Positions 41,270 to 57,494 of a stretch of DNA of 64,000 nucleotides are shown piece after piece. Source of the DNA: Nitrososphaeria archaeon (GTDB lineage Archaea > Thermoproteota > Nitrososphaeria > JACIWG01); NCBI GenBank assembly GCA_029776065.1, contig JARVJP010000009.1, forward strand, positions 452,514-516,513, given 5' to 3'. A program made the position numbers and the translations under genes. The notes beneath the pieces were generated by a model. That model searched no databases. It was not told the origin of the DNA and saw only the letters and a list, made by a program, of their open reading frames with translations. The stretch's first letter is position 1; each line of letters begins with the position of its first letter.

Positions 41270-42622
41270 TTGGCTCGTATACTACCAGGTGTTGAAATAC
41301 GTGTAGTTAAAGAAATTGTTCCTCAACAACTTCGTCCCGCCGGTGTCGTAGGCTTATTGGGGACGGCTGAGAAGGGTATTCCATTTGAAGCCGTTCCAGT
41401 AACCAGCTATAGAGAGTATATGGAAAAGTTCGGTTCCAACACTGACTATACGCTAACAAAGGACGCTAGGCTCGCATTTTTAAACGGGGTATCCCAAGTA
41501 TTCGCTGTGAGGGTGGAAGGGGAGCCAGGTAAGCCAGCAGAGATTGGTTTAAAGGACGCTAATGGCAACCCCTCCGTGCTGTTGAAGGCTAGAAGCCCAG
41601 GGCCTGTTGGAAACAATATTGAAGTCGTAGTTATGAGAGGCTCGCAGGAGAACTTGATTCGTCTAGAACTCAGTGATGGAAAGATATCTGAGGCCTTTGA
41701 CGACTTGACAATGGAGGCAGCGAATGAGAGAAATCTTGTTTCATTCTTGAACTCTAAGTCTAAATTGGTTCTAGCAGAAGACGTGAGTAAGAAGAAGTTC
41801 CCTGCGAACACCCCCGCTCCTTTAGAAGCTAAGCTTGCAGGAGGCACTCCTGAGACAATATCAAAGAGCTCTGTGGAAAAGGCCCTTCAAGCCTTTGAAC
41901 TAGAACCAGATATCGATATTGTCTTGGCTGCGGACATAAGTGACCCTGCAGTTCATGCGCTTGTTGACGCCCACTGCAAGAACATGAGTAAAGATGCAAT
42001 GAATAGGATTGGAGTGGGCACAGTGGCTCCTGGTGAAAGCGTTAAGGATATCGTTAAGAGGACAGAGGCGCTTGCAAGCGATAGGTTTGTCTTAGTCGCA
42101 CCTTATGGTGTGGCAGGTGCGGTTGCAGGCCTGCTGAGTAGTCTATCATATTACGAATCACCTACCTTCAAAACTCTGACAGGCATCGATAGTGTAGAGA
42201 AAAGATACTCTCCATCAGAGTTAACGGAACTAGTAAAGGCAGGTGTCTTAGCTGTAGAAATGAGGAGAGGGCGTGGTATAATTGTAGAGAAAGGTATCTC
42301 GACAAGTCAGGAGCAGATCAGTGTAACAAGGGTGGCAGACCGTGCTGTAAGAGGGGTGAAAAACGTAGCTGAAAACTTCATTGGTACATTAAATAGTCCA
42401 GGAGGGAGAACTGCTTTAAAAGAGAAGATAACAGAGTTCCTACTCTCTATGGAAAAGGAGGGTTCTCTTGTGCCTAGTGTTGATGGTAAGAAGCCTCCTT
42501 TCATAGTTGATGTTTACTCTTCAGAAATGGACTTCGCGCAAGGAATAGTTAGAGTAGATGTTGCTGTTAGGCCTGTGAGAGCTATCGATTACGTGTATGC
42601 CACGATAACAGTGGAGGTTTGA
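41270..42622 (+). CDS. contractile tail sheath protein (P2 FI / CIS sheath)
   Basis: N-terminus ILPGVEIRVVKE...PAGVVGLLGTAEKGIPFEAVPVTSYREYMEKFG is the hallmark sheath N-terminal signature. 450 aa. Confidence 0.85.
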   Translation: MARILPGVEIRVVKEIVPQQLRPAGVVGLLGTAEKGIPFEAVPVTSYREYMEKFGSNTDYTLTKDARLAFLNGVSQVFAVRVEGEPGKPAEIGLKDANGNPSVLLKARSPGPVGNNIEVVVMRGSQENLIRLELSDGKISEAFDDLTMEAANERNLVSFLNSKSKLVLAEDVSKKKFPANTPAPLEAKLAGGTPETISKSSVEKALQAFELEPDIDIVLAADISDPAVHALVDAHCKNMSKDAMNRIGVGTVAPGESVKDIVKRTEALASDRFVLVAPYGVAGAVAGLLSSLSYYESPTFKTLTGIDSVEKRYSPSELTELVKAGVLAVEMRRGRGIIVEKGISTSQEQISVTRVADRAVRGVKNVAENFIGTLNSPGGRTALKEKITEFLLSMEKEGSLVPSVDGKKPPFIVDVYSSEMDFAQGIVRVDVAVRPVRAIDYVYATITVEV

Positions 42623-42633
42623 GGTGAAGAAAG

Positions 42634-43035
42634 GTGTCTAATCCGTTTATTGCGTCTGCAAACGTTAGTGTAGTCAAAGTTGACGGGGAGGTCATACCGG
42701 GTGTACAGTCAATCGAATGGAAGATAATAAGAAATAGGCAGAACGTGTACAATATTGGTTCACAAGAGAGAGTTGGTGTTGACGTTGGCCCACTGTATGT
42801 TCATGGGCTGATCAGGGTTAGATCAACTTCAACGAAATTAGATGAGCTTCTACTGAAGGAGGTTAAAGACCTTAAGCCTGTTCAGATTCTTGTCCAAACC
42901 ATGTTAAGGACGGCGAAGGTTAAGGATATATCATTCGACGACGCATACGTTGAAGAAAAGACTTTCTCTATCGACTCTAATGGTGTTGGCATTAGCGTCT
43001 ACACCTTCACAGCAACTAGAGTGAGAGAAACCTAG
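42634..43035 (+). CDS. tail tube protein (P2 FII / CIS tube)
   Basis: 133 aa, VVKVDGEVIPGVQSIEWKIIRNRQNVYNIGSQER tube-family pattern. It sits immediately after the sheath gene. Confidence 0.7.
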   Translation: MSNPFIASANVSVVKVDGEVIPGVQSIEWKIIRNRQNVYNIGSQERVGVDVGPLYVHGLIRVRSTSTKLDELLLKEVKDLKPVQILVQTMLRTAKVKDISFDDAYVEEKTFSIDSNGVGISVYTFTATRVRET

Positions 43036-43037
43036 CT

Positions 43038-43409
43038 ATGCCTAAGAAGCTGTCAAAGGACTTGATCCTTGAGGGAGCGAATAGGAGGGAGACGGTATAC
43101 CTTAGAGAATATGATGCTGAAGTCGTAATAAAACCATTGACAGACGGCGAACTATCAAAGATCTTTTCATCCATAGGAAGTGTTCCTCTAAAAGAAGATG
43201 GAACTCCTGACATAGGGAAGATCGATATCTCAAAGAACTTCGAAATCCTCCGCCTCGCTGCAGTCGAAGGGCTCGTTGAGCCAAAGCTCGCTCTAAAAGA
43301 ACTAGAAGCGATGAAGTTTGGTGTCCCCGAGTTCATAGGTATGAAGGTCTTCGAGATCAGTGGCGTAGTTAGAGGTACTGAGGAGGCTAAAAAAAAAGTT
43401 AGAAGTTGA
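43038..43409 (+). CDS. tail assembly chaperone-like protein (P2 gpE analogue)
   Basis: 123 aa acidic protein between the tube and the tape measure. It ends just after an A9 run, with a long open +1 frame beyond. Confidence 0.4.
   Translation: MPKKLSKDLILEGANRRETVYLREYDAEVVIKPLTDGELSKIFSSIGSVPLKEDGTPDIGKIDISKNFEILRLAAVEGLVEPKLALKELEAMKFGVPEFIGMKVFEISGVVRGTEEAKKKVRS
43389..43397 (+). promoter_or_regulatory. A9 homopolymer: candidate programmed frameshift site (or indel hotspot) at the end of the chaperone gene
   Basis: GCT AAA AAA AAA GTT AGA AGT TGA. The +1 frame is open for 71 codons (43399..43614, including LCLDCGY), and its TGA overlaps the GTG start of the next gene. Confidence 0.4.
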
Positions 43410-43610
43410 AAGCTTCGTAAGAAGCCAGGAAGGCCAAGAACTCGCCACACTATGTCTTGACTGTGGGTACAAGCTTGCCGAGAGTCCCAGAGACTTAACT
43501 CGAGATCAAATTCTTTTTTTGATAGCTGCTCTGGCATTCCGTGCAGAACAGTTAGCGCAGGCAAAGTTGTCTGCACAGGGAATAACAAGAATCAACATAT
43601 CAGAAGGGGG

Positions 43611-45359
43611 GTGAGGAATGAAAGGTTGGAAATTAGGGAAATATTAAGTTCGCTGATTAAAGAAATAAATAGGGTTTTAGCTACGCTTGGGGGAGTACTG
43701 TATAAACCTATAAACAACATCTTCTTGTCTTGTTTGAACATCCTTAAGGTTAGTAGTGACGTTTTCAATAAAATTGCCGATTTCGGTGTCTACGTTTTTC
43801 CCCCTTATTTAAGAGCTATCCAATATAACCTTTTTGAGGAAGGGGTAGAGGTTAAACCGTCTTCATCTCAGCTTATTCAACCGAGTTCGGTTCTACAACC
43901 TCATATTAGCTACTCTCTTGAATTTATTAAGAAGTTGCAACCAACAAGGATAAGAGGTAAAGTGAAAGCTGGTGTTGAAGAGTCTTCAATCTCCTATTAT
44001 CCTTTGACAACGTTTTACGATGATCTTACTGCTCTCACCACTCCTGTCACACTAGTTACTAGTAAAATGGTTAAATCAAAACCTTATACTCTAAAGGCTC
44101 AACAAAGGATGATTAAGGAGCAGATTATTGCTCAAGAAGTTACTCCATCTGTTAAGACGGTTTCAGACTCATTTACCGTGTTAAGAGAAGTTTTTAGAGT
44201 ACTAAGCCTGAAACCAGCTATGATACAGTATGGAAAGAAAACTGCTCTAGGACATACTGATGGAATATATTATGAGATTCTCCCAGAGACGTCTAAAGGC
44301 TTTGATCTAGCGCTTACTTCGGTAATAAGTGCTATCAGTCTACCTTTATATTTGATGTCTGAAGCTGAGTTGTATAAGGTTAAAGGTGAGGCACTACCTT
44401 CTGAGACTGAACTAATTCGCCATATTGAATATTCTTCTGTTCCAGCTTACAGGCCAGTTCTATCCCCTCCTTTAACAGATCGAGACCACCTTTTGATACC
44501 TTTGTTTATATTAGCTTTAAGCTGGGTATCTAAATATATTAAATCACCCCTTCAGCCTCTCCAAAAGAGTTACTTGGACTACATCACTTACTCTAAACAA
44601 GCACTTGATGTTGCAGTTAAACCATCTGGTTTAGGGCCGTCTACTGTCCCCCTATTTATACCACATATTCAAAGTCGAATCGAGTCTTATTTATATTCCA
44701 AAGAGAGTTTAAGCGCTATAGAACAGGCTTACTCGGTCACTCAAAGAGTAGTACCCAGTTTCCCAACATCTAGTGTATTTACTTACTCCCCTGTCAAACA
44801 GCTTACTGAATTTATGGTAGATCTTCAGCCTCTTCTTTTAGGGGCCTCCCATGTCCCATATTCGGACCAACTTGAAGCACATCCTTTGAGTATGTATAAA
44901 GTAAGCGTGTCTTCTATAGCTCTATCAGATTTTCACCCATTTAGACATATGCCTGCTTCCATGGTTAAAGCTTTGATGTTTACTAGACATGCTTTGAATA
45001 AAGTTTTACCATCAAGTTATTTGATGACAGTAGACGGATTTGTCATTAAACAAATAGATATAGTGAGGTTAGAGACCTCATCTCCTCTAGTGACCTCGTC
45101 TATCGAATACACGAGGACGATACGGGAATTTAGGATGGCTGAATTAGAAGCTGAACAGGAAATTTTAGCCTCCAAATCTTACCCATCTTTGAGTACTGAG
45201 AAACCTCTGCTCACCCCATCCTATCTCATACCAGAAGTCCAAAACATCTTTCAAATCACCGTTCCAGAGGAGTCAGATTTAGATCTAAAAGAGTTAGAAA
45301 GAAAGATTACGCGCATTCTTAATGAGCAAGTTCGGAGGTATTATGGTTACCTAAGTTGA
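43611..45359 (+). CDS. tape-measure-like protein (P2 gpT analogue)
   Basis: 582 aa, Ser/Leu/Pro-rich with no enzymatic motifs. It is positioned after the chaperone as in P2 and R-pyocins. Confidence 0.4.
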   Translation: MRNERLEIREILSSLIKEINRVLATLGGVLYKPINNIFLSCLNILKVSSDVFNKIADFGVYVFPPYLRAIQYNLFEEGVEVKPSSSQLIQPSSVLQPHISYSLEFIKKLQPTRIRGKVKAGVEESSISYYPLTTFYDDLTALTTPVTLVTSKMVKSKPYTLKAQQRMIKEQIIAQEVTPSVKTVSDSFTVLREVFRVLSLKPAMIQYGKKTALGHTDGIYYEILPETSKGFDLALTSVISAISLPLYLMSEAELYKVKGEALPSETELIRHIEYSSVPAYRPVLSPPLTDRDHLLIPLFILALSWVSKYIKSPLQPLQKSYLDYITYSKQALDVAVKPSGLGPSTVPLFIPHIQSRIESYLYSKESLSAIEQAYSVTQRVVPSFPTSSVFTYSPVKQLTEFMVDLQPLLLGASHVPYSDQLEAHPLSMYKVSVSSIALSDFHPFRHMPASMVKALMFTRHALNKVLPSSYLMTVDGFVIKQIDIVRLETSSPLVTSSIEYTRTIREFRMAELEAEQEILASKSYPSLSTEKPLLTPSYLIPEVQNIFQITVPEESDLDLKELERKITRILNEQVRRYYGYLS

Positions 45360-45889
45360 TAGGTGGTAGCTTGAATATAAAACTTGATGATATAGATCTT
45401 GTGAAAAGAGTTGACGAGGAAGGCGTTAGGGAGGTTAGGAGCATACTCAACGTTACAATTTTGGGTAAACGTCATGTGAAAGAGTTTAAAGTACCAGGGC
45501 TAGAAGGTAACGTCTTTCAAGACTTAGGACGTGATTCTTTGACGATAATAGTAGAAGGGTTACTTACTGGTCTAAACTCAAAGGATACTTTTAAAGAGAT
45601 GAACTCTAAGTTTAAACTCGGTCGACCGATACCCTTTATCACCGATATTCCATCTTTGACTGAAATATCGGAAGTTGTAGTTGAAGGTTTTAAGGCGAAG
45701 GTTGTCAGCGGGATGTCTTTAAACTATTGGTATCTCCTAACACTTAAGGAGCATAAGAGTAGTCCTCCGAAGCAATCTGAAGTGCCTAGTCAAGAAGAGA
45801 CAGCAAGAGAGGAAACTAAAGAAGCTATAAAGCAGATCCGTAAGGAAGTAGAGTTAAAGTCGGAGGGAAAGGCGCCACTAAAAGGGTGA
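45356..45889 (+). CDS. tail protein, gpU-like by position (hypothetical)
   Basis: 177 aa, overlapping start/stop with its neighbours. Assigned by synteny only. Confidence 0.3.
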   Translation: MIGGSLNIKLDDIDLVKRVDEEGVREVRSILNVTILGKRHVKEFKVPGLEGNVFQDLGRDSLTIIVEGLLTGLNSKDTFKEMNSKFKLGRPIPFITDIPSLTEISEVVVEGFKAKVVSGMSLNYWYLLTLKEHKSSPPKQSEVPSQEETAREETKEAIKQIRKEVELKSEGKAPLKG

Positions 45890-46980
45890 AGGAAGTTGGA
45901 GGGATCTATTCTTTCCGATTAAGTTGGAGAATGGTGACGCAAATGCTCTTTCCAAATTATAAAGTTGAAGTAGGATCTGAAAGCTTTAACCCTGATTCGC
46001 AGTCGATCGTTGGGTTTAATATCAAGTTGGGCTTAGGCCCAAAGGTGGATAGTTTCGAGCTCTTGTTGGTGAAGGATGATCGGAGCTTAAAGATTACTCG
46101 AAACGATTTCGTCAACGTATTTTTAGGGTACGAAGATGATATGGAGAAGGTGTTTTCTGGTTTAGTTGAAACAGTAGAGAAAGGTATCTCGACTGTTAGG
46201 GTTTTTGGGCTAGCTTTCTCAGTGAACTTCCTTTTGTTTAGGATAAATAAGGTGTACCTTAATCAAACGGCAGGGCAGATCGTTTCCGATCTCCTCTCTT
46301 CCGTGAAGCAAAGGATGAAAGAAGTTAAGTGGTTTCCTGTTGAAGAAGGGCAGATAATGGATGGCTTAAGCTTCCCAGTTTACGTTGTTGATAACCGTCT
46401 AAGTGCCTACGAACACATAGAGAAGCTTGCTAAACGATCTAATTACGTATTTTATATATCGTCTGAAAATAAGCTCTTTTTTAAAAAATTTGAAGAAGGC
46501 GAAGTACAAGTACTTAAATACGGAAGGGACATTATTGAAGTGAACGTGACTAAAATGGTTGGTCAATACGATTCGGTTATTGTTTACGGTGAAAGCCCAT
46601 CTAGTTGGTCTGGTCGTGAAACCTACCATTGGCTATCTAAACGAGAGGTTTTTGGGCTTGCCTCTTATAGTTCCACCGAAGGCCAGAAGGAGGTTTCAAG
46701 GAGGCACTTGCTTACAATGCAAGACTCAGTTATAAAGGATGGCGACACAGCATTTACCACAGCAGGAAATGTAGCAAATATTGTTAACAGCGAACTTCAG
46801 GTAGTATTAAAAGTTGTGGGGAGCTCTAAGTTAAAGGTTAACGATACCGTAAAGGTGGAGGGATTAGAAGGTGATGCTTTTAATTCCCAGTTAAGAATTG
46901 TTGAAGTCGAGCATTACTTAAGTAGGGTCGATGGGTTTACTTCGATTATAACATGTGTGCCGGAGGAGAAAGCGTTATGA
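45886..46980 (+). CDS. baseplate hub protein, P2 gpD-like by position
   Basis: 364 aa, a similar size to gpD, in the U-D-V order. Confidence 0.4.
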   Translation: MKEVGGIYSFRLSWRMVTQMLFPNYKVEVGSESFNPDSQSIVGFNIKLGLGPKVDSFELLLVKDDRSLKITRNDFVNVFLGYEDDMEKVFSGLVETVEKGISTVRVFGLAFSVNFLLFRINKVYLNQTAGQIVSDLLSSVKQRMKEVKWFPVEEGQIMDGLSFPVYVVDNRLSAYEHIEKLAKRSNYVFYISSENKLFFKKFEEGEVQVLKYGRDIIEVNVTKMVGQYDSVIVYGESPSSWSGRETYHWLSKREVFGLASYSSTEGQKEVSRRHLLTMQDSVIKDGDTAFTTAGNVANIVNSELQVVLKVVGSSKLKVNDTVKVEGLEGDAFNSQLRIVEVEHYLSRVDGFTSIITCVPEEKAL

Positions 46981-47696
46981 GTATTGTAGAGTTGATAAAG
47001 AAGATCGCAGAAAATGAAGCTAGAAAGATCCACACTATCGAATTAGGTGTTGTAACATCGGTGTTTCCTCACTCGTCTCCTGATGATAAAGATAACTATG
47101 AATGCAACGTAAAACTCAAAAATATGGATTTAGAGCTTCAAAGGGTTCAAATCGCTACACCGATAATCGGTCTAGCTGAGCCACCAAGAGTAGGGGATCT
47201 GGTTCTAATTGCATTTGTCAATGGGGATATCAACTTACCAATTTTGATAGGTCGGCTGTATAATGATGAAGACCGTCCTCCAATAAATGACTTAGAAGAG
47301 GTAGTTTATATCCCCAAATATGAAAGAAACCCCGAACGGAGGCGAGTCTACCTGGAATTTCCTGAAGGGATAGTTCTCAAGGTTACTGACGACGACGTGA
47401 TGGTTAAGACTGGTGAAACGAAGGTGGTTATCCAAAGAGATGGCGATGTTCTGATAGAGTCAAAGGCTAACATAACAGTGAAGGCGGAGGGGGATGCTAA
47501 GATAAAGGTGAAGGGGAGCCTTTCGCTTTCAGCAGCTTCTATAGAAATGGAAAGCGAGAAAAATATGGGTATAAAGGCAGGATCAGATTTGAACATTAAA
47601 TCAGATAGTAATATTGAATTAAAGTCTAGTAGCCAGATGAAGGTTGAGGCTAGTGCTGAAATGAATATAAAAGGAGCGAAGGTGAACATTAACTAG
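46953..47696 (+). CDS. baseplate spike protein (P2 gpV / gp5-like OB-fold plus beta-helix)
   Basis: GDLVLIAFVNGDINLPILIGRLYNDEDRPP matches the Phage_base_V OB-fold motif. The C-terminal repeat run ITVKAEGDAKIKVKGSLSLSAASIEMESEKNMGIKAGSDLNIKSDSNIELKSSSQMKVEASAEMNIKGAKVNIN is beta-helix-like. The true start is probably an internal codon (MSIVEL). Confidence 0.65.
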   Translation: MCAGGESVMSIVELIKKIAENEARKIHTIELGVVTSVFPHSSPDDKDNYECNVKLKNMDLELQRVQIATPIIGLAEPPRVGDLVLIAFVNGDINLPILIGRLYNDEDRPPINDLEEVVYIPKYERNPERRRVYLEFPEGIVLKVTDDDVMVKTGETKVVIQRDGDVLIESKANITVKAEGDAKIKVKGSLSLSAASIEMESEKNMGIKAGSDLNIKSDSNIELKSSSQMKVEASAEMNIKGAKVNIN

Positions 47697-48119
47697 GTGA
47701 AGCTTGTGTCTAATTTGTTGAAAGCAGATTTGAAATTGAAAATTGTTGATGGGGGTGCTGATTTCTCGATTCAGGAGGGGGATTTGGAGATTGTAAGCGA
47801 AGAAGATAATCTAGCACAGTCCATTATACATAGGCTTATGACTGGTAAAGGTGAGCTTTCTGAATTGGGGCATCCAGATTATGGGTCAAGGCTAAATGAT
47901 ATTTTAGGCCAGCCGAATAACGATGAGACAAAGGGTAGAGCTCGAGCTCTAGTATTAGACTGTTTATCCCAGGAAACCAGAATAAAAGATATACTAGATG
48001 TAAAAGTTGAAGCAAATAGGCTTGACTCACATAAGATCGACATAGAGATCTTCGTTGTACCTGTTGGAAGCAATAAGCCTCTAGGTGTTTTTTATTCTCA
48101 ATCTCTCGAAGTGATCTGA
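47697..48119 (+). CDS. gp25/GPW-like baseplate wedge protein
   Basis: LAQSIIHRLMTGKGELSELGHPDYGSRLNDILGQ matches the GPW_gp25 signature; 140 aa. Confidence 0.75.
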   Translation: MKLVSNLLKADLKLKIVDGGADFSIQEGDLEIVSEEDNLAQSIIHRLMTGKGELSELGHPDYGSRLNDILGQPNNDETKGRARALVLDCLSQETRIKDILDVKVEANRLDSHKIDIEIFVVPVGSNKPLGVFYSQSLEVI

Positions 48120-49690
48120 TGCCGTTAGAGAAGAAGAGTTACAGGCAGATTGTAAACGACATCCTGAAGCGACTCGGGGAAACATATGAACAGTTCACCT
48201 ATTCCAAGGCTAAGGCAAGGTATTTTCTATCAGGAAAGGCCATTGAAGTAATCGCAGTACAAGGAATCTCTAAGAACGCGAAAAAGGAGTTTAAGAAGGA
48301 TGTTGACTACAAGTTCTCTGAAAACTTCATCGAATGGCTCTACGAAGGGGAGCGACCAGATGAGGGGACAGAGTTCACAGTTGTGTACAAGTCGCAGAGG
48401 CCAGAGATTACCGATACCGCGCCAGGTAGTGTCGCGAGGACTTTGATAGAAGCGATAAGCAGAGAAATAGAGTACCTAAATGAACTTATATGTCAAGCAT
48501 ATGATGCAGGATTTATTGATACCGCGTCAGGGGACTCATTGGACTTGGTCGTCGCTATATTGGGTATTAGAAGAAAACCACCTCAACCTGCTTCAGGATA
48601 CGTTACCTTTGGAAGGCGCACCGAACCCGAAAGCATCCAAGTAAAAGGTGAAGTGGTCCTATATGACGGGTCAGTTTCATATCAACTTAAGTCTAAGCTC
48701 GTAAAGGAAGTTGTTAGTGTCAAAGGCGTCACCCAAAACGTTAAGAAGAATTACAGAAAGGATATCGATTACTCTTTGGTTGGCAGACAGATAAGATGGC
48801 TGCCTAATGGTGAAAAGCCTGATGAAGGCACTACCTTTACTATCGACTATGAAGCTTATCGTGAAATCATTATCCCAAAGGGTACAAAGATTTCAACCTA
48901 TTCTTCGAAGCCTGAAGAAGTAAAAACCTATATCACAGCTGAAGAAGCTTTTCTCAGCCCTATCTCTGAAGGTGTTTGGGAGGTTGATGTGCCCGTTATT
49001 TCAACAGTCCCTGGACCTTTAGGTAATGTGCTTGCTGGTTCGGTGAATGTTCTTCCTCAGCCTTTGATGGGTATAGAGTATGTGATTAACAAGAACGATA
49101 TTGGAGGAGGGTTGGACACAGAAACCGATAGGGAACTAAGGGATAGAGCTAAACACGCCCTCGAAATAGCTGGTAAGGCGACTCTCCCATCGCTTGAAAC
49201 CGCGGTAAAGTCGGTCGAAGGTGTTAGCTCGGTGTTAGTGAAGGACACACTTGATGGTATGCCTGGTGTTGTTAAGGTTATTGCAGACGGTGGTGACCCG
49301 GATAAGATAAGGAAGGCCATTGAAGACACTAGAGCCGCAGGGATCAAAGTCGAGTTTTCTAGGCCTAGGGCTGTGTATATAGATGTGGAATTGACTCTTA
49401 TTATTGGGAAGGCTGTCTCAGAAGTTGAGGTGTCTAGAAAGGTTGAAATGTTAATTAGAAGTTATATCTCATCACTTGGTATAGGAGATGATGTCTTTTT
49501 TTACAAGATTGCTGCTTTAGCATTAGATGTACAAGGTGTTTTCGACGTTTCTGATATAGTGATCTCTTCGTATCGAGGAGGAGTCGAGGTTGTAAAGAGC
49601 GATAAAGAAAATATAGAAATTTCTGATGAAGAGAAGGCTTTGGCTCGTAACATCGTGATCTCCTTTAGAAAGGTGAATAAGGTTGAGTAG
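48119..49690 (+). CDS. Baseplate_J (P2 gpJ / T4 gp6-like) wedge protein with an internal duplication
   Basis: 523 aa. A repeated module (KKDVDYKFSENFIEWLYEGERPDEGTEFTVVYKSQRPEI vs RKDIDYSLVGRQIRWLPNGEKPDEGTTFTIDYEAYREII). C-terminal region typical of J-family proteins. Confidence 0.65.
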   Translation: MPLEKKSYRQIVNDILKRLGETYEQFTYSKAKARYFLSGKAIEVIAVQGISKNAKKEFKKDVDYKFSENFIEWLYEGERPDEGTEFTVVYKSQRPEITDTAPGSVARTLIEAISREIEYLNELICQAYDAGFIDTASGDSLDLVVAILGIRRKPPQPASGYVTFGRRTEPESIQVKGEVVLYDGSVSYQLKSKLVKEVVSVKGVTQNVKKNYRKDIDYSLVGRQIRWLPNGEKPDEGTTFTIDYEAYREIIIPKGTKISTYSSKPEEVKTYITAEEAFLSPISEGVWEVDVPVISTVPGPLGNVLAGSVNVLPQPLMGIEYVINKNDIGGGLDTETDRELRDRAKHALEIAGKATLPSLETAVKSVEGVSSVLVKDTLDGMPGVVKVIADGGDPDKIRKAIEDTRAAGIKVEFSRPRAVYIDVELTLIIGKAVSEVEVSRKVEMLIRSYISSLGIGDDVFFYKIAALALDVQGVFDVSDIVISSYRGGVEVVKSDKENIEISDEEKALARNIVISFRKVNKVE

Positions 49691-50582
49691 TGCGAATCGG
49701 ATAAGTAGACGTCTTCCTAGCTTCTATAGGTCTTGGGATAAAAATTCAACAATCTTTAGAATTGTTAATGCAACAAGCAGTGAAATTGATAGTAGCCGAA
49801 ATTTGATCTTGGAGATGATGCGCTCCCATTGGGTTGATTCTGCTTCAGACGGTGACTTAGACAAAATGAGCCAATTGTTTGGTCTAAAGAGAATAGTTGG
49901 GGAGGACGATGACCACTTCAGGATGCGTCTAAAGGGAGCTGTTGTTGATTTTACTGGTGGTGGAACACTTACCTCTATAAATTCAATGCTTAGGGCTCTA
50001 ATAGGCAATGACGTTTGTGTAATTGAAAACCCTCCGACTGAAGCCTACTTTGAAGTTAGAGTCATGTCCGGTGACAGTTGGTCTATTGGAAATAACAGCG
50101 TTGAGGAAGTTTCTATACCTGAAATCGTTATCGAAGCTGAAGACGTCATTGAAAACCCCCAAATATTAAATGAAGATTTCGAGCAAACTATAGTTTACAA
50201 CGGTGTGTTGAATAAGGGAGACAAGTTAGTGATAAAGGATGGAAAGTTCCTATTAAATGGGGAAGACGTTTCTGAGAAGGTCTCCTCAAAGGATCTACCT
50301 CGGGTTTATAGACGTGTTTCAAGTTGGAAGTACGTTGAGCTTATAAGGGAGAAGATAGGTGTCTTCGACTCCACGGCATTTGACGAGAGCATATTCGCCG
50401 TGAACGTGCCAAAGGCTAAGATATCTATGAAGTGGGTTCGGCTCCAACCTGCAACCTTCTCAGTTAGATTGAATCGGGATTCTTTAAATAGAAGTAGGGT
50501 TCCTAAGGAATATGTGGAAGAAGTTCTGAACTCAATTAAAGCTGCTGGTGTAAAGGTAATTGTTGAGGAGGTAGGTGAATGA
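49683..50582 (+). CDS. baseplate protein, gpI-like by position
   Basis: 299 aa, overlapping its neighbours; it follows the J-like gene as in P2. Confidence 0.35.
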   Translation: MSSANRISRRLPSFYRSWDKNSTIFRIVNATSSEIDSSRNLILEMMRSHWVDSASDGDLDKMSQLFGLKRIVGEDDDHFRMRLKGAVVDFTGGGTLTSINSMLRALIGNDVCVIENPPTEAYFEVRVMSGDSWSIGNNSVEEVSIPEIVIEAEDVIENPQILNEDFEQTIVYNGVLNKGDKLVIKDGKFLLNGEDVSEKVSSKDLPRVYRRVSSWKYVELIREKIGVFDSTAFDESIFAVNVPKAKISMKWVRLQPATFSVRLNRDSLNRSRVPKEYVEEVLNSIKAAGVKVIVEEVGE

Positions 50583-51232
50583 ATATGCCCAAGTTTAAAC
50601 CTGTAACGAGAAAGTCAGGTGAACTTATTAGAGCTGAAGACTGGAATAAGATTCAAGAGGACATTCAGGCTGACATAGAAGAACTGGATACTAAGATAAC
50701 CCAGCTCAGGAAGTACGTGGACAGCCTTAACGAAAGTACGACGATCCTTAATCCTGCAAGCCCAGTTGGCATGTCTTATAGTCTGACGGAGAACATTCCT
50801 GGAGAAAAGGATAACTACGTGACAACTGTTGTAGGCCCAATTACAAGGCAGTGGGCTATGGAAAGGGGAAAGGTTGGAGAGCTATGCAAATTTGGTCTCG
50901 CAGAATACTTTGAAGTACTAGACTACTGGGCTGGTGCGGAGGACGGGGATAAAAAGGCGTTGGAGATTCTCTTCGAGTACCTTGACGGAACCTCTGCGGT
51001 GGTGAGTGGCCTGTTTATACATGAGTGTTCTAAGCTTAGGCCAAAGGGAACCGAAAACCCCTTTTTAGAGTACCTTTTATCTCCAAACGAAAGAGTGTGG
51101 TACAGGTATAGAGTGAAGAACCCGCACCCAGAAAAGGAGGTTTTTAACATCACGTTTAGAAAGATCGAACCAGGGTGCATTCTAAAGATAGGGAATGTAA
51201 TAAACTTCAAGTCGAAGATGACCACCCTGTGA
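50579..51232 (+). CDS. tail-fibre-like / receptor-binding protein candidate (hypothetical)
   Basis: 217 aa. An N-terminal coiled segment (RAEDWNKIQEDIQADIEELDTKITQLRKYV) resembling fibre N-termini. Position after I. Confidence 0.3.
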   Translation: MNMPKFKPVTRKSGELIRAEDWNKIQEDIQADIEELDTKITQLRKYVDSLNESTTILNPASPVGMSYSLTENIPGEKDNYVTTVVGPITRQWAMERGKVGELCKFGLAEYFEVLDYWAGAEDGDKKALEILFEYLDGTSAVVSGLFIHECSKLRPKGTENPFLEYLLSPNERVWYRYRVKNPHPEKEVFNITFRKIEPGCILKIGNVINFKSKMTTL

Positions 51233-51239
51233 GGTAAAG

Positions 51240-51911
51240 GTGATGTTCGTAGAGTTTGAAGACAAAATCGTCGACGCTTTGAAGGCCAGCGTTAAGGAGG
51301 TTCCCAAGGGGAATATAATAGTGGGCGTAGAAGGTGATAAGGTGCCATCGATATACATATCCAATATTTTCTTCAAGATTGAGAGATCCAATCTATCTGA
51401 AGACGAAGAAGGTGAAAGAATAAATGAAGTCTTTGATGGTGATGGTTCCCAAAAGAGGTACCTGTTAAGGGGGAAACCTGAAAGTGTTCTTAGCGTTGAG
51501 TCGCCTAAGGGTAAGGTGCTTCAGATTTGGGATCAATACACAGTGAACCTAGAAGAAGGTTCGGTGACGTTTCGTCATCCTCCAGCCAAAGACTCAAAGA
51601 TAATCATTAACTATGTCTCAAAGATCAAGAAGTTGAAGGTTGTGCGGTTAAAGCTTAAGGCGAAGTATTCGTTTACCATATCATCAGAAGATCGGAGACA
51701 ACTGGATAGCACTGCTGAGGGTGTTATAAGGTCTCTTCTTAAGGTTGAGAGAGAGCTTGAACAGAAGGGCTTTTCTCTTAAACCTTCTTCTGGAAAGTAC
51801 CTTTCAGATAACAAGATCAAGTTATTTTACCATGTTGAATTAGAGATCGAGTCAGCAGAAGCGATTCCTCCGATAGAGAAGATAGAAATAAGAGAAAGTC
51901 ATGAAGCTTAA
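51240..51911 (+). CDS. hypothetical tail-associated protein
   Basis: 223 aa in the same operon; could be a fibre chaperone or terminator. Confidence 0.25.
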   Translation: MMFVEFEDKIVDALKASVKEVPKGNIIVGVEGDKVPSIYISNIFFKIERSNLSEDEEGERINEVFDGDGSQKRYLLRGKPESVLSVESPKGKVLQIWDQYTVNLEEGSVTFRHPPAKDSKIIINYVSKIKKLKVVRLKLKAKYSFTISSEDRRQLDSTAEGVIRSLLKVERELEQKGFSLKPSSGKYLSDNKIKLFYHVELEIESAEAIPPIEKIEIRESHEA

Positions 51912-51913
51912 CT

Positions 51914-52411
51914 ATGAGCCAGAAGACTAAGCTTCCATATGGGCCAGTGAAGCTATCGGTAGACGCGATTGGTTTCGAGGATGGTAGGATTGTACAGTTT
52001 GAAATATATCGGAAGAAAGGTGGGAAAGAAGAGTTGGTTAGCCAAGTTAATGGCGCTGTAGTAGACCAAAAAGCAGAGGCTAAGTGGGTACCTGAAGCTG
52101 AAGAACGCAGAATAACCTTGGGAGGCGATTCGACGGAGGCTGGCGACGTTCCGGAGGATGAGGAGTACTATTTTAAGGCAAGGATCGACGAATTGGAGGT
52201 GAGCTCTGAAAAGTTTGAGTTCACATATCCGTTAGAAATTTATTTAAAAGACGATCGTGGCAGACCATTAGATGGTCTTAAGTTTGAAATAGAGTTCTCT
52301 GATGGTAGCAAGAGGGAAGGAGTCATCAAGGATGGGTATGCGAAGGTTAAAGATGCTCCAAAGGGGCGCTTCAAGGTGAAGGTCAAAGGGTACAAATTTA
52401 AAGAGGGTTAA
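51914..52411 (+). CDS. hypothetical tail-associated protein
   Basis: 165 aa, acidic/Lys-rich, in the operon. Confidence 0.25.
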   Translation: MSQKTKLPYGPVKLSVDAIGFEDGRIVQFEIYRKKGGKEELVSQVNGAVVDQKAEAKWVPEAEERRITLGGDSTEAGDVPEDEEYYFKARIDELEVSSEKFEFTYPLEIYLKDDRGRPLDGLKFEIEFSDGSKREGVIKDGYAKVKDAPKGRFKVKVKGYKFKEG

Positions 52412-52416
52412 CTGCT

Positions 52417-54558
52417 TTGAAGAAAAAAAATGTTTGGTGTCTGATTTTGAGTGATGGTTCTGGGCAGGGTGTTGTTGGAGCAAACCTGACATTTGCAGAC
52501 GCGACCCTCTCACAAGAAGTATCTTACTGTGTACGTATTAGGCTTGGCGTTCTCCCAGAAGATTCGAACTACTCTTTGGAAGCTGAGGATCTCGCAAGTG
52601 ACGCCTATTCACCTTATGATGAAAGCAAGGATATATTGCATGAGTCCTCTATAAATCTAAGGCTTTGTATCGAAGAAAACATAGCTCATAACGGTCTTTC
52701 AATTAATGACAAGTGTACCTTTTATCGCCACTATGGGCTAATGGATCAAGTGGATGTGTTTCTTCCGTTAAGGCTTGAAGTCGTAAAGATGGAGGGTGAT
52801 GCCCGTTCCGATTTCATGGAAGAAGAAGTTAACGTCGTGTTTGAAGTCATCGATCCGGCAGAGAATTTATCCATAATAAAAGGTCCTAAGGGAAAGGGTA
52901 GAACTGGCAAGGATTTCATTAGAAACCTAGTGTATAAACAAGAGGGAGATGATAACTGCATAAGAGATTTTGCACCACGCCCTATCAGAAATCGATGTCG
53001 TCAATCAAGTTCCGATGTTGTTAATGCTAAAGACATTTTATTTGACAGAAGAAAGAACAGTTTTGAGACAGCTTCAAGTGATCCAAAAAGCGTAGTCGCC
53101 TCGATCCAAGAAACCGAGGTTGAAGAAGGTAAGAAGATAGGCGTATTGAACTTCTTCTTTCACCCGCCACCGATAGCAGGTGACAACTATAAAATTAGAG
53201 TCAAGCTAATATCGAGCTCTGGGGCAGAGGTACTATTACGTGATAAACCAGACTCAGCATTCTATCCACTTTATTTTCAGACACCAACAATCACCATCTG
53301 GAAGAAGGTTAAGGTAGAAATGGTTGCTATACAAGAGGGACTTGATTACAGCATGTTGGGATGGAGCAAGATTAAGAGAGCGTACAGGGACGCATACATT
53401 GAAATCGAAGAGGCTGCGGATGACAGAAGATACATAATCACACGTGATGAATGGATGAGTTATCTAGGTCGCGTGGTCTATGATGAATGGAGGTCACATG
53501 AATGGGAAGAATACATTAAGCAAAGCTACCACCAATACCATATAGACGACTTCAAAAAGTACTCTTTTCCGCAAGATCATACTTTCGACACACCCTCTGT
53601 ACCGAACTCTGACAGGTTAACGCCACCAGATGATGACCCTGACCATCCAAACAATACTACTTGGGAGTTTTTAGGTCGTATCGCTAGAGCGGTGATAAGG
53701 GATAAGCTAGGTAACTCTAACTATAGGAGACTTGGTCAACCAAAGAATGGTTTTAGGCTTGGGATATGTGTCTTGTTCTGTAAACCTCCCTTTGATGGGT
53801 CGACCGTCGGTGGAAGTTATATATGGGACAAGATGTTCTACATGGTCTCATCAGGGGATGTTGCGAATACGTTTGTTCACGAGATGGGGCATGCCCTTTT
53901 CTTAGACCATGGTGCCACCGCTTTCAATACAGAAGCAGATTTCCCATTTACTACTCGTACAGAGGAATCTGGTTCTTCTGGTCCATTCTGGGATAATCAC
54001 GACAGCCAAGATATGATAACTTGCATTATGTCATATGAGGTGGACTCTCCAGTTGAATGGCACTTCTGCGGTCTGTGTCTTCTGGTCTTAAGATTGTATG
54101 ATCGACACCATATGTTAAGCGGTCCAAATGATACCTTGAGGAAAGTACTCTACCCTGGTTCTGCTGACCTGTGCTGGACTGAGACTGTTAAAAATAAGGT
54201 AGTCGAACCGGATGGTTTTGAATATGAAACATTCTTCCTTAAAATTTATCGTGGTAATCCAGGCCCTATGAGTATTGGCAAGAGTCTTAGACTGTTAGCT
54301 CTATATCCCCCAGAGGGGGTAGAAAACAACCTACATCAAGATTTCTGGAAAGATCTGAGCCGTTTCCCCAGAGGTAGATGGGTTTCTAGTAATCCGAGTG
54401 TTGCGACTGTCAGTGTATCGAAAATGGGGGATTTTTGGGTTGCTCAGGTTAGGGCTTTGAGAAAGGGCACTACGAATATTTACCATGAGATAAGGAGAAG
54501 TACAGGTTGGAGTGGCGACGTCGATCGAAGCCTTCCGATGGTGATAACCGTTGTCTGA
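52417..54558 (+). CDS. large metzincin-like zinc metalloprotease domain protein (putative tailocin/eCIS effector)
   Basis: VHEMGHALFLDHG (H-E-x-x-H-x5-H), then ...ITCIMSY (Met-turn-like) in the C-terminal half of a 713-aa protein. The gene starts 6 nt after the preceding one. Confidence 0.5.
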   Translation: MKKKNVWCLILSDGSGQGVVGANLTFADATLSQEVSYCVRIRLGVLPEDSNYSLEAEDLASDAYSPYDESKDILHESSINLRLCIEENIAHNGLSINDKCTFYRHYGLMDQVDVFLPLRLEVVKMEGDARSDFMEEEVNVVFEVIDPAENLSIIKGPKGKGRTGKDFIRNLVYKQEGDDNCIRDFAPRPIRNRCRQSSSDVVNAKDILFDRRKNSFETASSDPKSVVASIQETEVEEGKKIGVLNFFFHPPPIAGDNYKIRVKLISSSGAEVLLRDKPDSAFYPLYFQTPTITIWKKVKVEMVAIQEGLDYSMLGWSKIKRAYRDAYIEIEEAADDRRYIITRDEWMSYLGRVVYDEWRSHEWEEYIKQSYHQYHIDDFKKYSFPQDHTFDTPSVPNSDRLTPPDDDPDHPNNTTWEFLGRIARAVIRDKLGNSNYRRLGQPKNGFRLGICVLFCKPPFDGSTVGGSYIWDKMFYMVSSGDVANTFVHEMGHALFLDHGATAFNTEADFPFTTRTEESGSSGPFWDNHDSQDMITCIMSYEVDSPVEWHFCGLCLLVLRLYDRHHMLSGPNDTLRKVLYPGSADLCWTETVKNKVVEPDGFEYETFFLKIYRGNPGPMSIGKSLRLLALYPPEGVENNLHQDFWKDLSRFPRGRWVSSNPSVATVSVSKMGDFWVAQVRALRKGTTNIYHEIRRSTGWSGDVDRSLPMVITVV

Positions 54559-56029
54559 AAGAAAGCCCTTAAAGTCTTCGGAAACCCCTATTTCGGTTTC
54601 AGTAGATTTTGAAGAACGTGAATACGTCAGATACGAATCAATACCTCTTTCAGTATCTATTGAAAACAAGGGTTCTTTACCAGTGAAGATCGATGAATTT
54701 ACAGTATCGAGTGAGACTTTGCAGGTTCGCATGATAGATGATTCAGGGGAAAGATACTCTGGGTCACCACTTAGTTGGCTGGCGAGGGAGGGAATACTCG
54801 TTCCACCTAAGAAGAGAAAGTCGTTCTTTCTCAGCTCAGGGCAAAAGAAGTCAATCTCAATAGATTTGATCAAGATCTTTGGAGAGCTCAAGGAGGGAAC
54901 TTATAGGGTAAGAGTTACATATCATTCTGGTGGTGTTCTGTTCGTCGACTCTAAAGTTTTTAAGGTGAAGGTTGTATCCGCTGGACCAGTGTACTCATTT
55001 ACCCCTAGGGATCTTTTTCAGCTTAATGCGCCGATACGCACTGTGTGGGTTAACTATGAAAATAACAGTTTCTATCTGTTTATTCTTGAAAACAGTCCTA
55101 ATATGCCAAAGAATATTTGGAGTTGTAGACGTATTATGGAACTGGAAAGTCGCCAGGAACCGCAGCTATCGCTTCTTGAAAGCTACGATCAAAGATATGA
55201 GCATGTAATTTGGTATAGCCAGAAGTCTGTCACAATTTTGACTATCTTGAGAACTCAGAAGTCTGAGTTCAAGAAGTTCACATCATATCTCCCGTTTCAT
55301 AAGATCATTGGCCCTCCGTTTACAATCGAAGATGGCACTTTATTCCTTCTTATAGTATCAAAAGATGATAAATGGGGATCTGCAAGCTTGTTCACGCTCT
55401 CTCCTGATGGAAGGGCGAAGTTGACAAAGTTCTTGTCATTCAAGGGTATGCTTGTTGAATGTAGTGTTCTATTTAAGCGTAGGCGGGCTTACATTGTTTA
55501 CATGCTAGAAAAGGAGCCAGTTATACACTATCTTGAATTAGACTTAAATAACTATGAAGTTTGTACAACAAGATCGATCACTTTGGAGAGTATAAAAACG
55601 CCTTATACAGGATTAACCCTCTACTACGCTTGCAGAGATAAGGAGGGGGAGCGAATGCTTTGTGCACACATCATGACCGAAGAAGTAGGTAAATATTGTT
55701 CCCAAGTAATAGATGTTGGACGATGCAGAAATGTTTTCAACCTCTTCTTCCCATCAGCTGAACGCATGAATCTAAAGTTGTTAGATTTAACCCTAGACCC
55801 AGAATGTATGCCACATTACCTTTTTCAAGATCAGTGGGGTGCCCTCTGGTATCAGTCGCCAAAGGAGATAGGGCTTCAGAAGGTCACCGCGGACGATGAG
55901 ATCTGCCCAGGTAACGTGGTTTCTCCTACACTTATTATTTCCTCTCCATCCAGTCGCCACTATGGAGTATACTTAAGATACATAAAGGACAGATCACATT
56001 TTATATACAAGGACGTTGAAAAGCTATAA
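54551..56029 (+). CDS. hypothetical protein (effector-associated or accessory?)
   Basis: 492 aa, overlapping the end of the metalloprotease gene by 8 nt. No recognisable motifs. Confidence 0.3.
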   Translation: MSERKPLKSSETPISVSVDFEEREYVRYESIPLSVSIENKGSLPVKIDEFTVSSETLQVRMIDDSGERYSGSPLSWLAREGILVPPKKRKSFFLSSGQKKSISIDLIKIFGELKEGTYRVRVTYHSGGVLFVDSKVFKVKVVSAGPVYSFTPRDLFQLNAPIRTVWVNYENNSFYLFILENSPNMPKNIWSCRRIMELESRQEPQLSLLESYDQRYEHVIWYSQKSVTILTILRTQKSEFKKFTSYLPFHKIIGPPFTIEDGTLFLLIVSKDDKWGSASLFTLSPDGRAKLTKFLSFKGMLVECSVLFKRRRAYIVYMLEKEPVIHYLELDLNNYEVCTTRSITLESIKTPYTGLTLYYACRDKEGERMLCAHIMTEEVGKYCSQVIDVGRCRNVFNLFFPSAERMNLKLLDLTLDPECMPHYLFQDQWGALWYQSPKEIGLQKVTADDEICPGNVVSPTLIISSPSSRHYGVYLRYIKDRSHFIYKDVEKL

Positions 56030-56056: not shown

Positions 56057-56605
56057 CTATTCAGGTTGAACTTTAGGATTAGCTAACCATGTGAAAGGTT
56101 TAACTTGAGGTCTCTCAAGTTTCTTCTCCTTTGACTTGATACTTGTTGGTGGCCGAGGCATCGGTACACCAACTTCTCCTATAAAGACAGTGCCGGATGC
56201 GATGACCTTACCGACAGGCAAGTCTACTGGATCATTACAAGTCATGGCTGTATCCCCGTTTCTAGCTGCTGGTTTACCGTTTATGAAGACACCAATACTT
56301 CCAACAATGATTCTACCCTGATTCGTTGGCGGCTTCTGGAAGCTTGGTCCACCAATCGGAGTATGGGCTGGAGTATTTGTTGCCGTGCTTCCAACAATCG
56401 CTGCTGGCCTTCCTTCAATAAAGACGTCGTTGCTTAGGTTGTTGTCGATTATACCATTGAATGGGTGGGGAATAGGAGTTGGCACCGGAGAACCTGGTGG
56501 TGCTGGAACCATAACAATGTGGATGTCTTGGGCAGTGATCTTGTCTCCTTGTTTAGCTGCTGGCTGCCCCACCTTTATCGCTCTCCTTGGGTTGAGCTGC
56601 ACCAC
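56057..56605 (-). CDS. PAAR-repeat protein (spike-tip protein)
   Basis: GRPAAIVGS and GKPAARNGD repeats with a Pro-rich linker; 182 aa (GTG start, which may be an internal Met). Confidence 0.7.
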   Translation of the reverse strand: MVQLNPRRAIKVGQPAAKQGDKITAQDIHIVMVPAPPGSPVPTPIPHPFNGIIDNNLSNDVFIEGRPAAIVGSTATNTPAHTPIGGPSFQKPPTNQGRIIVGSIGVFINGKPAARNGDTAMTCNDPVDLPVGKVIASGTVFIGEVGVPMPRPPTSIKSKEKKLERPQVKPFTWLANPKVQPE

Positions 56606-57494
56606 ATTTTGGACAGAATGAAGCTAGTATATTTATAACTGCTCCACAGTTTGGACAGGTCTTCGTATCTGGTCCACCAGCTGGTTGTTTGCCACACTTC
56701 GGGCATGATAAAGCATTTTCCGCCATCGATGAGCCACAATGCATGCAGAATCTCTTTGGTGGAGGCGTCGGCGGTTTCTTCCTCATTAAGAAGAACGCGA
56801 TCGCGATTACCGTTATTATAACTATGACCACGATTACTACGACTAATGTCATATCTGATTCACCGGATAGAGTCGTTGTAGTAGTCGAGGTAGTGTTTAT
56901 TGTAGTTGTAGGGGTGGTTATTGTTGAGCTAGGAGATGTAGTGGTTGAAGTTGGGAGTGTAGTAGTTGTTATTATTGTTGTCGTGCTTGTTGTGGTTGAT
57001 GTTGTAGTGGGTGTTGTTGTGGTGGTTGTTAAAGCGGTGACTTTAATGCTTAGATTTGCATAATTTTTGGCTGTACCATCTGTTCCGTTGATAAATGCGG
57101 TGTAGACCCCTGCTGCGACTGTTTTTTCAACATTTATGAAAGCTGTTGTGCTTATATTGCCATTTACTGGGGGTGTTAACTTAGAGAGTGCAAAGGATAT
57201 TGTTATACCTGTTGGCGTGGTAGAAAACAGAGACACGGTTTTATTATATCCAAAATACGAGCTAACCGTAACCACAACTTGTTTGTTACTGCCTTGTTCT
57301 ATTGTAATATTAGTGGGCTTTACAGAAATTGCATACCATGGCATAAGTGTGAAGGTTGGGGTTGGGAATGTAGGTGATATGGTTATGGTTTGTGGTGACA
57401 ATTTAGATGAGGAAACCGGTGAACTTAATATAATAAAAGTAACTACAAATAAAATCGTTATTAAATGCACTCTAGTTCTCATCTTCTTAGCCAT
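56553..57494 (-). CDS. cell-surface protein: signal peptide, Thr-rich linker, TM helix, cytoplasmic double zinc ribbon
   Basis: MAKKMRTRVHLITILFVVTFIILSS signal. Poly-Thr/Ser stretch. TM helix LVVVIVVIVIITVIAIAFFL. Then CMHCG...CPKCG and CPNCG...CPKCG. Confidence 0.5.
   Translation of the reverse strand: MAKKMRTRVHLITILFVVTFIILSSPVSSSKLSPQTITISPTFPTPTFTLMPWYAISVKPTNITIEQGSNKQVVVTVSSYFGYNKTVSLFSTTPTGITISFALSKLTPPVNGNISTTAFINVEKTVAAGVYTAFINGTDGTAKNYANLSIKVTALTTTTTTPTTTSTTTSTTTIITTTTLPTSTTTSPSSTITTPTTTINTTSTTTTTLSGESDMTLVVVIVVIVIITVIAIAFFLMRKKPPTPPPKRFCMHCGSSMAENALSCPKCGKQPAGGPDTKTCPNCGAVINILASFCPKCGAAQPKESDKGGAASS
56850..57020 (-). repeat. low-complexity Thr/Ser codon repeat inside the surface-protein gene
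   Basis: Runs of ACN/AGT-complement codons (gttgtagtagtcgaggtagtg...), coding TTTTTTPTTTSTTTSTTT... Confidence 0.6.

Follow-up and report, generated by a model that had tools for sequence, protein, structure and literature searches.

We analyzed a stretch of 64,000 nucleotides from a Nitrososphaeria archaeon (assembly GCA_029776065.1, contig JARVJP010000009.1, positions 452,514 to 516,513), hereafter called the window, and concentrated on one open reading frame in it. This frame, at 52417..54558 on the plus strand, encodes a predicted zinc protease directly behind the genes of a contractile tail. An initial annotation, made from the sequence alone, had described its product as a 713-aa protein with a metzincin motif. 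The frame and both motifs named there were present: HEMGHALFLDH occupies residues 488-498 (nt 53878-53910) and CIMSY residues 536-540 (nt 54022-54036). The length is the part of the description that probably does not hold. The frame starts with TTG and its 713 codons are the maximal open reading frame. The NCBI model of the same protein (P0001), annotated as a hypothetical protein of a Nitrososphaeria archaeon metagenome-assembled genome (MAG), has 703 aa; this model and the homologues start at 'MSD/MGD…', which in the alignment of homologues corresponds to the in-frame TTG at 52447. Since the NCBI annotation and the homologue alignment both start at this codon, we regard 713 aa as the length of the maximal frame and not of the likely product. 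Judging from these sequences, translation probably begins at 52447, gives a product of 703 aa and leaves the first 10 codons of the maximal frame untranslated. The longest protease frame extends past the homologue-supported start, and in the mechanical list of open reading frames 11 of the 15 tail-operon genes (41270-56029, plus strand) start with TTG or GTG and not with ATG.

The tail operon and the protease gene

The region 41270-56029 is a single co-directional contractile-tail operon with a Mu-like gene order. It runs from the sheath, the tube, a chaperone-like protein of 123 aa, a tape-measure candidate of 582 aa and a protein of 177 aa to the gpD hub and the gpV spike. It continues with gp25, Baseplate_J, a Mu gp48-like protein of 299 aa and three unassigned proteins (217, 223 and 165 aa), and it ends with the protease and a 492-aa protein. 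The genes and features of the locus are as follows.

41270..51911, plus strand: Mu-like contractile tail operon
43611-45359, plus strand: tape-measure candidate, 582 aa (582 to 701 aa among relatives)
46953..47696, plus strand: gpV-type spike, 247 aa (Pfam Phage_base_V), weakly related to bacterial VgrG
51914..52411, plus strand: 165-aa adaptor-type protein, called g165 here (weak prealbumin/TTR-like match, weak Pfam SpaA matches)
52417..54558, plus strand: protease, maximal frame
54551..56029, plus strand: conserved 492-aa partner, TTG start, 8-nt overlap with the protease gene, no Pfam family
56057..56605, minus strand: PAAR spike-tip protein, 182 aa (Pfam PAAR_motif, 1.4e-11)
56553..57494, minus strand: type I membrane protein with a double zinc ribbon (DZR), from predicted topology

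The initial annotation had placed the protease gene directly after the tail genes, had remarked that effectors typically sit there next to PAAR, and had noted that the next frame, of 492 codons, overlaps it by 8 nt. The positions agree with this: the tail genes extend from the sheath at 41270 to 52411, the PAAR gene lies at 56057-56605 on the minus strand, and the overlapping frame begins with TTG at 54551. The PAAR gene and the gene of the DZR membrane protein are convergent with the tail operon. The locus is flanked by housekeeping genes, those for a pfkB kinase, TIM, Sua5 and TatD upstream and for NucS and the archaeal S-adenosylmethionine synthetase downstream, and no capsid or terminase gene was found at the locus or in its flanks. 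Therefore we rejected a prophage and take the locus for a tail-only injection system. Between the tail operon and PAAR the window holds nothing but the protease gene and its partner, so this pair is the sole payload candidate in the window. The 247-aa gpV spike is presumed to carry PAAR and its load.

Conserved motifs and relationship to the metzincins

An indexed search gave 20 close relatives of the protease, and an exhaustive HMMER scan of 1.8 billion representatives gave 97 clusters at 50% identity. We read conservation from alignments of 19 close homologues and of 47 diverse members. Essentially every homologue covering the region (96 sequences) has the HExxH-type motif, the methionine and the CxxC, and nearly all members follow the pattern HExGHxxxLxH…CxMxY…CxxC. 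Residues G466, H488, E489, H492, H498, H528, C536, Y540, C551 and C554 were invariant in the 47 diverse members, and G491, M538, L556 and R559 were conserved in at least 90% of them. M538, the methionine downstream of the third zinc ligand, is kept at this level within C-x-M-[SA]-Y. A chance occurrence of the motif was rejected. In the six frames of the window HExxHx5H was observed 2 times against 0.13 expected in shuffles, the other copy belonging to a real archaemetzincin gene; conservation is the stronger of the two arguments.

The protein could be divided into the following parts.

52519..53334, plus strand: N-terminal region, aa ~35-306, two beta-sandwich domains with short helices in the model, Ig-like fold matches only
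53284..54156, plus strand: predicted catalytic alpha/beta domain, aa ~290-580, from the model and profile alignments
53878..53910, plus strand: zinc-binding motif HEMGHALFLDH (H488, E489, H492, H498), invariant in the 19 close and 47 diverse homologues and aligned with the MMP/serralysin active-site helix
53998..54078, plus strand: C-terminal subdomain signature H528-D-x-x-D…C536-I-M538-S-Y540…C551-G-L-C554, a Met-turn with Tyr and a putative second (Cys3His) metal site
54166..54552, plus strand: two C-terminal beta-sandwich domains, aa ~584-712, the last one Big_2-like (weak Pfam Big_2, BIG2/S-layer Ig-like Foldseek matches)

The AlphaFold model of the whole protein is confident (pLDDT 85, pTM 0.84), compact and multidomain. 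Its catalytic part opens with a strand (292-306), after which come helices, short strands, an insert of helices (360-440), further strands (450-477), the HExxH helix (482-493), the Met-turn region and C-terminal helices. This succession around the motif agrees with a zincin in the model. When the full model was compared by Foldseek with PDB and BFVD, the matches were Ig-like/Big_2 only, with no protease or zincin among them. A model of the domain alone (aa 288-582, 11 sequences), which was poor (pLDDT 68, C-terminal half below 50), gave no significant fold match. Distant homologues match N-terminal stretches (99-350), and this region is also kept in the bacterial homologues; as modelled, the N-terminal beta-sandwich region is a candidate loading or adaptor part.

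Searched as a single protein against Pfam, NCBIfam, PHROGs and PDB sequences, the protease gave nothing above threshold; the weak matches were all metallopeptidases, and in PHROGs there was no match below E=0.07. At E<=10 the profile of the 47 domains matched 172 PDB sequences, of which the first 60 were without exception metzincins. MMP-12 (4.8e-4) and MMP-14 (9.5e-4) were at the top, and MMP-8/1, serralysins, SVMPs, ADAMTS-5, astacin, myroilysin, archaemetzincin and karilysin were further among these 60. The alignments include strands before the active-site helix and so reach beyond the motif alone. When the 47 members were compared with Pfam one by one, matches were obtained to Reprolysin_5 (34 members), Reprolysin_4 (25), Peptidase_M10 (23, best 6e-6), M66 (17), M43 (11) and Astacin (9), and all matches in the metzincin families listed were below the family cut-offs. 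With a profile of the C-terminal half, C-l-M-s-Y aligned with the astacin Met-turn SIMHY (HCE-1) at a marginal E=0.021, and SVMPs matched through the Met-turn region at E=0.055.

The archaemetzincin gene of the window offered a direct comparison.

13973-14527, minus strand: archaemetzincin gene, 184 aa, HEIGHLLGLTHC…CIMSF…CNSC (Pfam Peptidase_M54, 3.9e-24; PDB 2x7m, 2e-20)

Alignment of the protease family with this protein by hhalign gave 94% probability (E=1e-7, 45 columns, with an insert of ~38 residues skipped). It paired the two HExxHx5H motifs, CIMSF with CIMSY, and CNSC…L-K with CGLC…L-R. The control, an M48 peptidase of the window, gave 24% and aligned over the HExxH helix only; this peptidase, with another HExxH, is the product of an unrelated host gene (29199-30227, plus strand). 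The metzincin motif and the Met-turn-like CIMSY of the initial annotation are thus upheld by profile matches to metzincins and by the 94% match to a genuine archaemetzincin.

The archaemetzincin motif is HExxHxxGx3Cx4CxMx17CxxC, in which four Cys bind a structural zinc, and it is visible in the window copy. Archaemetzincins (MEROPS M54; AmzA/AMZ1/AMZ2; PDB 2x7m, 3zvs) share with the protease family HExxHx5H, the C-x-M-S-[FY] Met-turn and a CxxC leading into a helix. They are stand-alone proteins of ~180 aa; their motif contains the Gly, and its third His is immediately followed by Cys. In the protease family, in contrast, this Gly is replaced by Phe/Tyr, the Cys of 'HC' is missing, with an invariant His 8 residues before CxM as its likely replacement, an insert of 22-45 residues follows the third His, and the domain is embedded in a protein of 700-900 aa. 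Compared with the archaemetzincin signature, CxM and CxxC of the protease can be aligned, whereas the Gly and the first Cys are absent and the spacing differs. Pfam M54 was reached by only 2 of the 47 members, at E of at least 0.05. By conservation and by analogy to the archaemetzincins, H528 and the Cys set probably bind a second, structural metal at a putative Cys3His site.

Astacin and serralysin (M12A, M10B) share the Met-turn S/C-x-M-x-Y with Tyr two residues after Met, and the strand-strand-helix before HExxH aligns with serralysin and MMPs, all matches being below family thresholds. The astacin motif HExxHxxGFxHExxRxDR, Ca-binding repeats and a pro-peptide are absent from the protease. 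The closest sequence relatives are divided, archaemetzincins for the C-terminal subdomain and MMP/serralysin/reprolysin for the N-terminal one, and the protease is a member of none of them. As judged from sequence, the domain is most likely a new family of the metzincin clan which belongs to no described family.

Homologues were found neither in 50,697 phage records (tblastn) nor in the plasmid collection, and a search queried with a Phycisphaerae homologue returned 4 proteins only. In the literature searched, which was incomplete, no description of this protease family or of the four-gene module was found. In three homologues (P0015, P0016, P0019) a LysM-type insertion lies within the helical insert of the catalytic domain (columns ~650-730 of alignment A1, weak Pfam LysM on P0016). 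Judged by sequence, the insertion may bind peptidoglycan or some other glycan. Giant proteins of 1,336-2,106 aa from Acidobacteriota, Planctomycetota and Enhygromyxa salina share HExxH…CxM…CxxC as well. They are encoded at L013 7316-12355, L014 6413-12733 and L015 7613-11623, without the N-terminal domains and without the partner, and their context was uninformative; the protein at L013 had two Reprolysin-like matches.

The partner, the adaptor domain and related loci

The partner gene always lies directly after the protease gene, in archaea as well as in bacteria. Its product has no predicted signal peptide or transmembrane segment, and from its sequence we judge it to be a beta-sandwich followed by a larger beta-rich body. 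In bacteria we found the order VgrG, protease homologue (808-852 aa), partner homologue (528-549 aa) in 4 of 4 loci examined, and a small PAAR gene came next in the 3 contigs that reached far enough. These loci are from a Phycisphaerae MAG and two metagenome contigs, and one lies in a canonical type VI secretion system (T6SS) cluster with TssE, TssF, TssG and ClpV. Archaeal and bacterial partners are homologous (E=4.5e-17). The protease and its partner are probably an ancient, shared injected cargo.

The initial annotation had proposed that the 492-aa protein might be accessory or confer immunity. The first part stands, as an accessory-type partner fits the data; the second does not agree with a cytoplasmic protein that has bacterial homologues. 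An immunity protein of the periplasmic type was rejected on account of the absent signal peptide and transmembrane segment together with the conserved bacterial homologues. These features suit an accessory protein, a chaperone or an inhibitor better than they suit a typical immunity protein.

The g165 domain stands alone upstream of the protease in most archaeal loci, and it has no predicted signal peptide or transmembrane segment. Fusions to the N-terminus of the protease occur in P0012 and in P0018/L019 (L019 10001-12820), which lacks a separate g165 gene. The C-terminus of PAAR carries the domain in L003/L004 (L003 16363-17340, minus strand) and L019, and a part of it in L002/L011. Transthyretin-like domains serve as adaptors on VgrG and PAAR proteins. 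Since the g165 domain is fused to either one, Rosetta-stone logic suggests that it links PAAR with the protease. L003 and L019 have two copies each, one on PAAR and the other free-standing or on the protease, and their coexistence suggests that the copies pair with each other. The domain was not found in the bacterial loci by jackhmmer, and no N-terminal packaging signal shared with other cargo was found. The initial annotation had also associated the effector with a place next to PAAR. A role as cargo of the spike or PAAR is supported by the VgrG-protease-partner-PAAR modules and by the fusions of the 165-aa domain; the behaviour of a variable cargo was not observed.

Related archaeal loci came from Nitrososphaeria, Methanomethylicia, Bathyarchaeia and metagenomes. 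Every readable one kept the order of genes up to and including the protease and the ~490-aa protein. PAAR adjoins the pair in the window, as it does in most of the related archaeal loci that we examined; none was called in L001. Between classes, the protease and the partner score 0.38-0.52 bits per residue where the baseplate proteins reach 1.2-1.8, a divergence 3-4 times as fast. One Methanomethylicia MAG has, besides a complete tail locus (L010), a second, orphan protease-partner pair among housekeeping genes (L009 9950-13523), as is often seen with orphan effector modules.

Contractile injection systems that deliver enzymes on the spike are already known. The nearest functional analogue is the C-terminal metallopeptidase of VgrG2b from the Pseudomonas aeruginosa H2-T6SS, a spike-carried, envelope-delivered zinc metallopeptidase (PMC6899460). 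The enzyme of VgrG2b is joined covalently to VgrG, and its immunity protein is periplasmic. Unlike VgrG2b, the protease described here is a separate protein with a cytoplasmic partner of 490-550 aa and no recognised immunity gene. Another HExxH domain, the DUF4157 'PVC-metallopeptidase' of extracellular contractile injection system loci, marks contractile injection loci in a conserved way and has links to their toxins (PMC8213781). DUF4157 is a short N-terminal module on diverse toxins, whereas our protease is of the metzincin type with a Met-turn and CxxC. It had no Pfam match to DUF4157 at E<=10, nor did DUF4157 figure among the families listed for the 47 members (25 of 32). In haloarchaea, a T6SS-like contractile injection system is chromosomal, has associated toxins and is anchored to the membrane through a conserved membrane protein (PMC11566945). 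That system belongs to a different lineage, with cis1-16 including an ATPase, and no such protease is reported for it; our cluster, from Thermoproteota, is of the Mu-like type and shows no ATPase.

Proposed role and alternatives

With a little more belief than doubt, we favour the reading that the gene encodes a zinc protease which is mounted on the spike and delivered. From the conserved motifs, the profile similarity, the gene linkage and the domain fusions we infer zinc binding, catalysis, attachment to PAAR, delivery and the substrate. The protein would be a multidomain zinc endopeptidase whose catalytic core is flanked by four beta-sandwich domains. It would be made in the cytoplasm and probably co-translated with the 492-aa partner, as the 8-nt overlap suggests translational coupling. 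Because the protease, the partner and g165 lack a signal peptide or transmembrane segment, they would have to assemble in the cytoplasm, and the partner may accompany the enzyme as a chaperone, adaptor or inhibitor. The g165 domain would most likely couple the enzyme to PAAR on the gpV spike, and contraction of the sheath would expel the spike with its load. The enzyme might then cleave proteins in or on the target cell, the envelope of that cell being our best guess for the substrate. The bacterial gene order, the domain fusions and the location and distribution of the genes argue for a link with the spike and against a place on the rim of the baseplate. Action at the cell surface or wall, and not deep in the cytoplasm, is suggested by the Big_2/Ig-like domains, by the LysM insertions that three homologues carry and by neighbours in related loci that are directed at the wall.

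Several observations weigh against the delivered protease as we picture it. The protease-partner pair behaves like core genes, keeping its position and staying together in all related archaeal loci, while variable enzymes (a lipase, a C14 peptidase, a peptidoglycan-binding protein) occupy another slot beside PAAR. The slot is found between PAAR and the partner gene, is read from the opposite strand, and was filled as follows.

L002, 13981-16107, minus strand: PLC/LCAT-type lipase
L003, 14325-16325, minus strand: 666-aa unassigned protein
L019, 14386-16300, minus strand: PG_binding_1 protein and a 411-aa protein
L021, 13654-14835, minus strand: caspase-like C14 peptidase
Window: slot empty

The proteins of the variable slot are likely to be exchangeable toxins. 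The ordinary loaded cargo effector of the initial annotation could not be retained, as the pair is fixed and syntenic in every related archaeal locus and the variable enzymes are elsewhere. Further points are that no immunity-like gene was recognised at the locus and that the bacterial contexts examined were only four. The Gly of the metzincin motif HExxHxxGxxH is Phe/Tyr in nearly all members, Gly standing at the canonical position in only a few (e.g. P0070, P0107, P0110). A narrow alignment (A1) with the archaemetzincin aligned the motif only, so that the archaemetzincin relationship is supported but not robust.

The invariance of the pair, together with the separate PAAR-side slot that does vary, invites another explanation, which we rate as possible and rather unlikely: the protease and its partner would form a constant 'drill-head' spike enzyme that cuts S-layer or wall peptide for penetration and is no toxin, a proteolytic counterpart of the T4 gp5 lysozyme, and the real toxins would be the variable proteins beside PAAR. 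The missing immunity candidate, and the LysM insertions and C-terminal Big_2/Ig-like domains with their indication of the cell surface or wall, agree with it, and the linkage to the spike applies equally. However, the window has no variable toxin, so the pair would be its only payload; the orphan pair at L009, away from tail genes, is effector-like; and the protease and partner evolve 3-4 times as fast as the baseplate proteins. In a wider version, spike, protease, partner and PAAR would be an ancient 'warhead' common to bacterial T6SSs and the Mu-like system of Thermoproteota, and in archaea it would serve as an obligatory proteolytic drill head that cuts S-layer or wall proteins, is coupled to PAAR by pairing of g165 domains and is kept inactive by the partner until firing. 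We consider this version unlikely.

The position of the gene after Baseplate_J and gp48, at the distal end of the operon where Mu-/P2-type tails encode their fibres, also raises the question of a peripheral baseplate, tail-fibre or receptor-binding protein whose Ig-like domains bind targets, with HExxH being incidental or part of a depolymerase. The Big_2 and other beta-sandwich domains and the evolution faster than that of core tail proteins would suit such a protein. Yet the bacterial homologues lie between VgrG and PAAR in T6SS loci, and since T6SSs have no tail fibres, this role is unlikely for them. In addition, the g165 domain is fused to PAAR and not to baseplate proteins, no phage homologues exist in the records searched, and the model (pTM 0.84) shows no fibrous or trimeric repeat and no tail-fibre or baseplate fold match. 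A fibre or receptor-binding structure had been named in the initial annotation as the outcome that would speak against an effector; what we obtained was a compact model with Ig-like matches only and no phage homologues. We regard this explanation as quite improbable. Very improbable, in our opinion, is an assembly or maturation protease on the producer side, or a catalytically dead scaffold, that processes or chaperones the spike, PAAR or cargo in the cytoplasm and is not delivered. Such a protein would be cytoplasmic without an export signal, tightly coupled to a large partner and constantly present in the loci, as is observed here. The strict conservation of the full catalytic set speaks against a dead scaffold, though, and four surface-type beta-sandwich domains and LysM insertions are unexpected for a cytoplasmic processing enzyme.

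The protease represents a family without a Pfam, NCBIfam or PHROG entry and without a name in the sources searched. The set of adaptor, protease and partner links a bacterial T6SS module with the injection system of Nitrososphaeria, Methanomethylicia and Bathyarchaeia, archaeal groups on whose injection systems the papers searched gave no functional data. If our reading is true, these archaeal machines gain a defined payload, the order PAAR – 165-aa domain – cargo becomes a candidate loading rule that could be reused for engineering, and the metzincins gain a new branch related to the archaemetzincins. What the archaemetzincins themselves do is still poorly understood. Should the 'warhead' version be true, it would provide the first penetration device based on a protease and a first mechanistic access to the injection systems of TACK archaea.

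The protein encoded beside PAAR at 56553-57494 on the minus strand has a signal peptide, an Ig-like ectodomain, a long Thr-rich stalk, a transmembrane helix and a cytoplasmic double zinc ribbon. This membrane protein could be a membrane anchor or trigger of the injection system, which would imply a T6SS-like mode. A DZR-bearing protein is encoded beside or near PAAR in most related archaeal loci and was not called in L003. Some of these proteins carry PQQ, Big_1 or Invasin_D3 ectodomains, and in P0020 a DZR is fused to the C-terminus of the protease. Elsewhere in the window, an unrelated host gene (37490-37933, minus strand) encodes a DUF6114 protein with a zinc-ribbon tail. Within the operon, the tape-measure candidate diverges fastest by far, with 0.06-0.24 bits per residue between loci.

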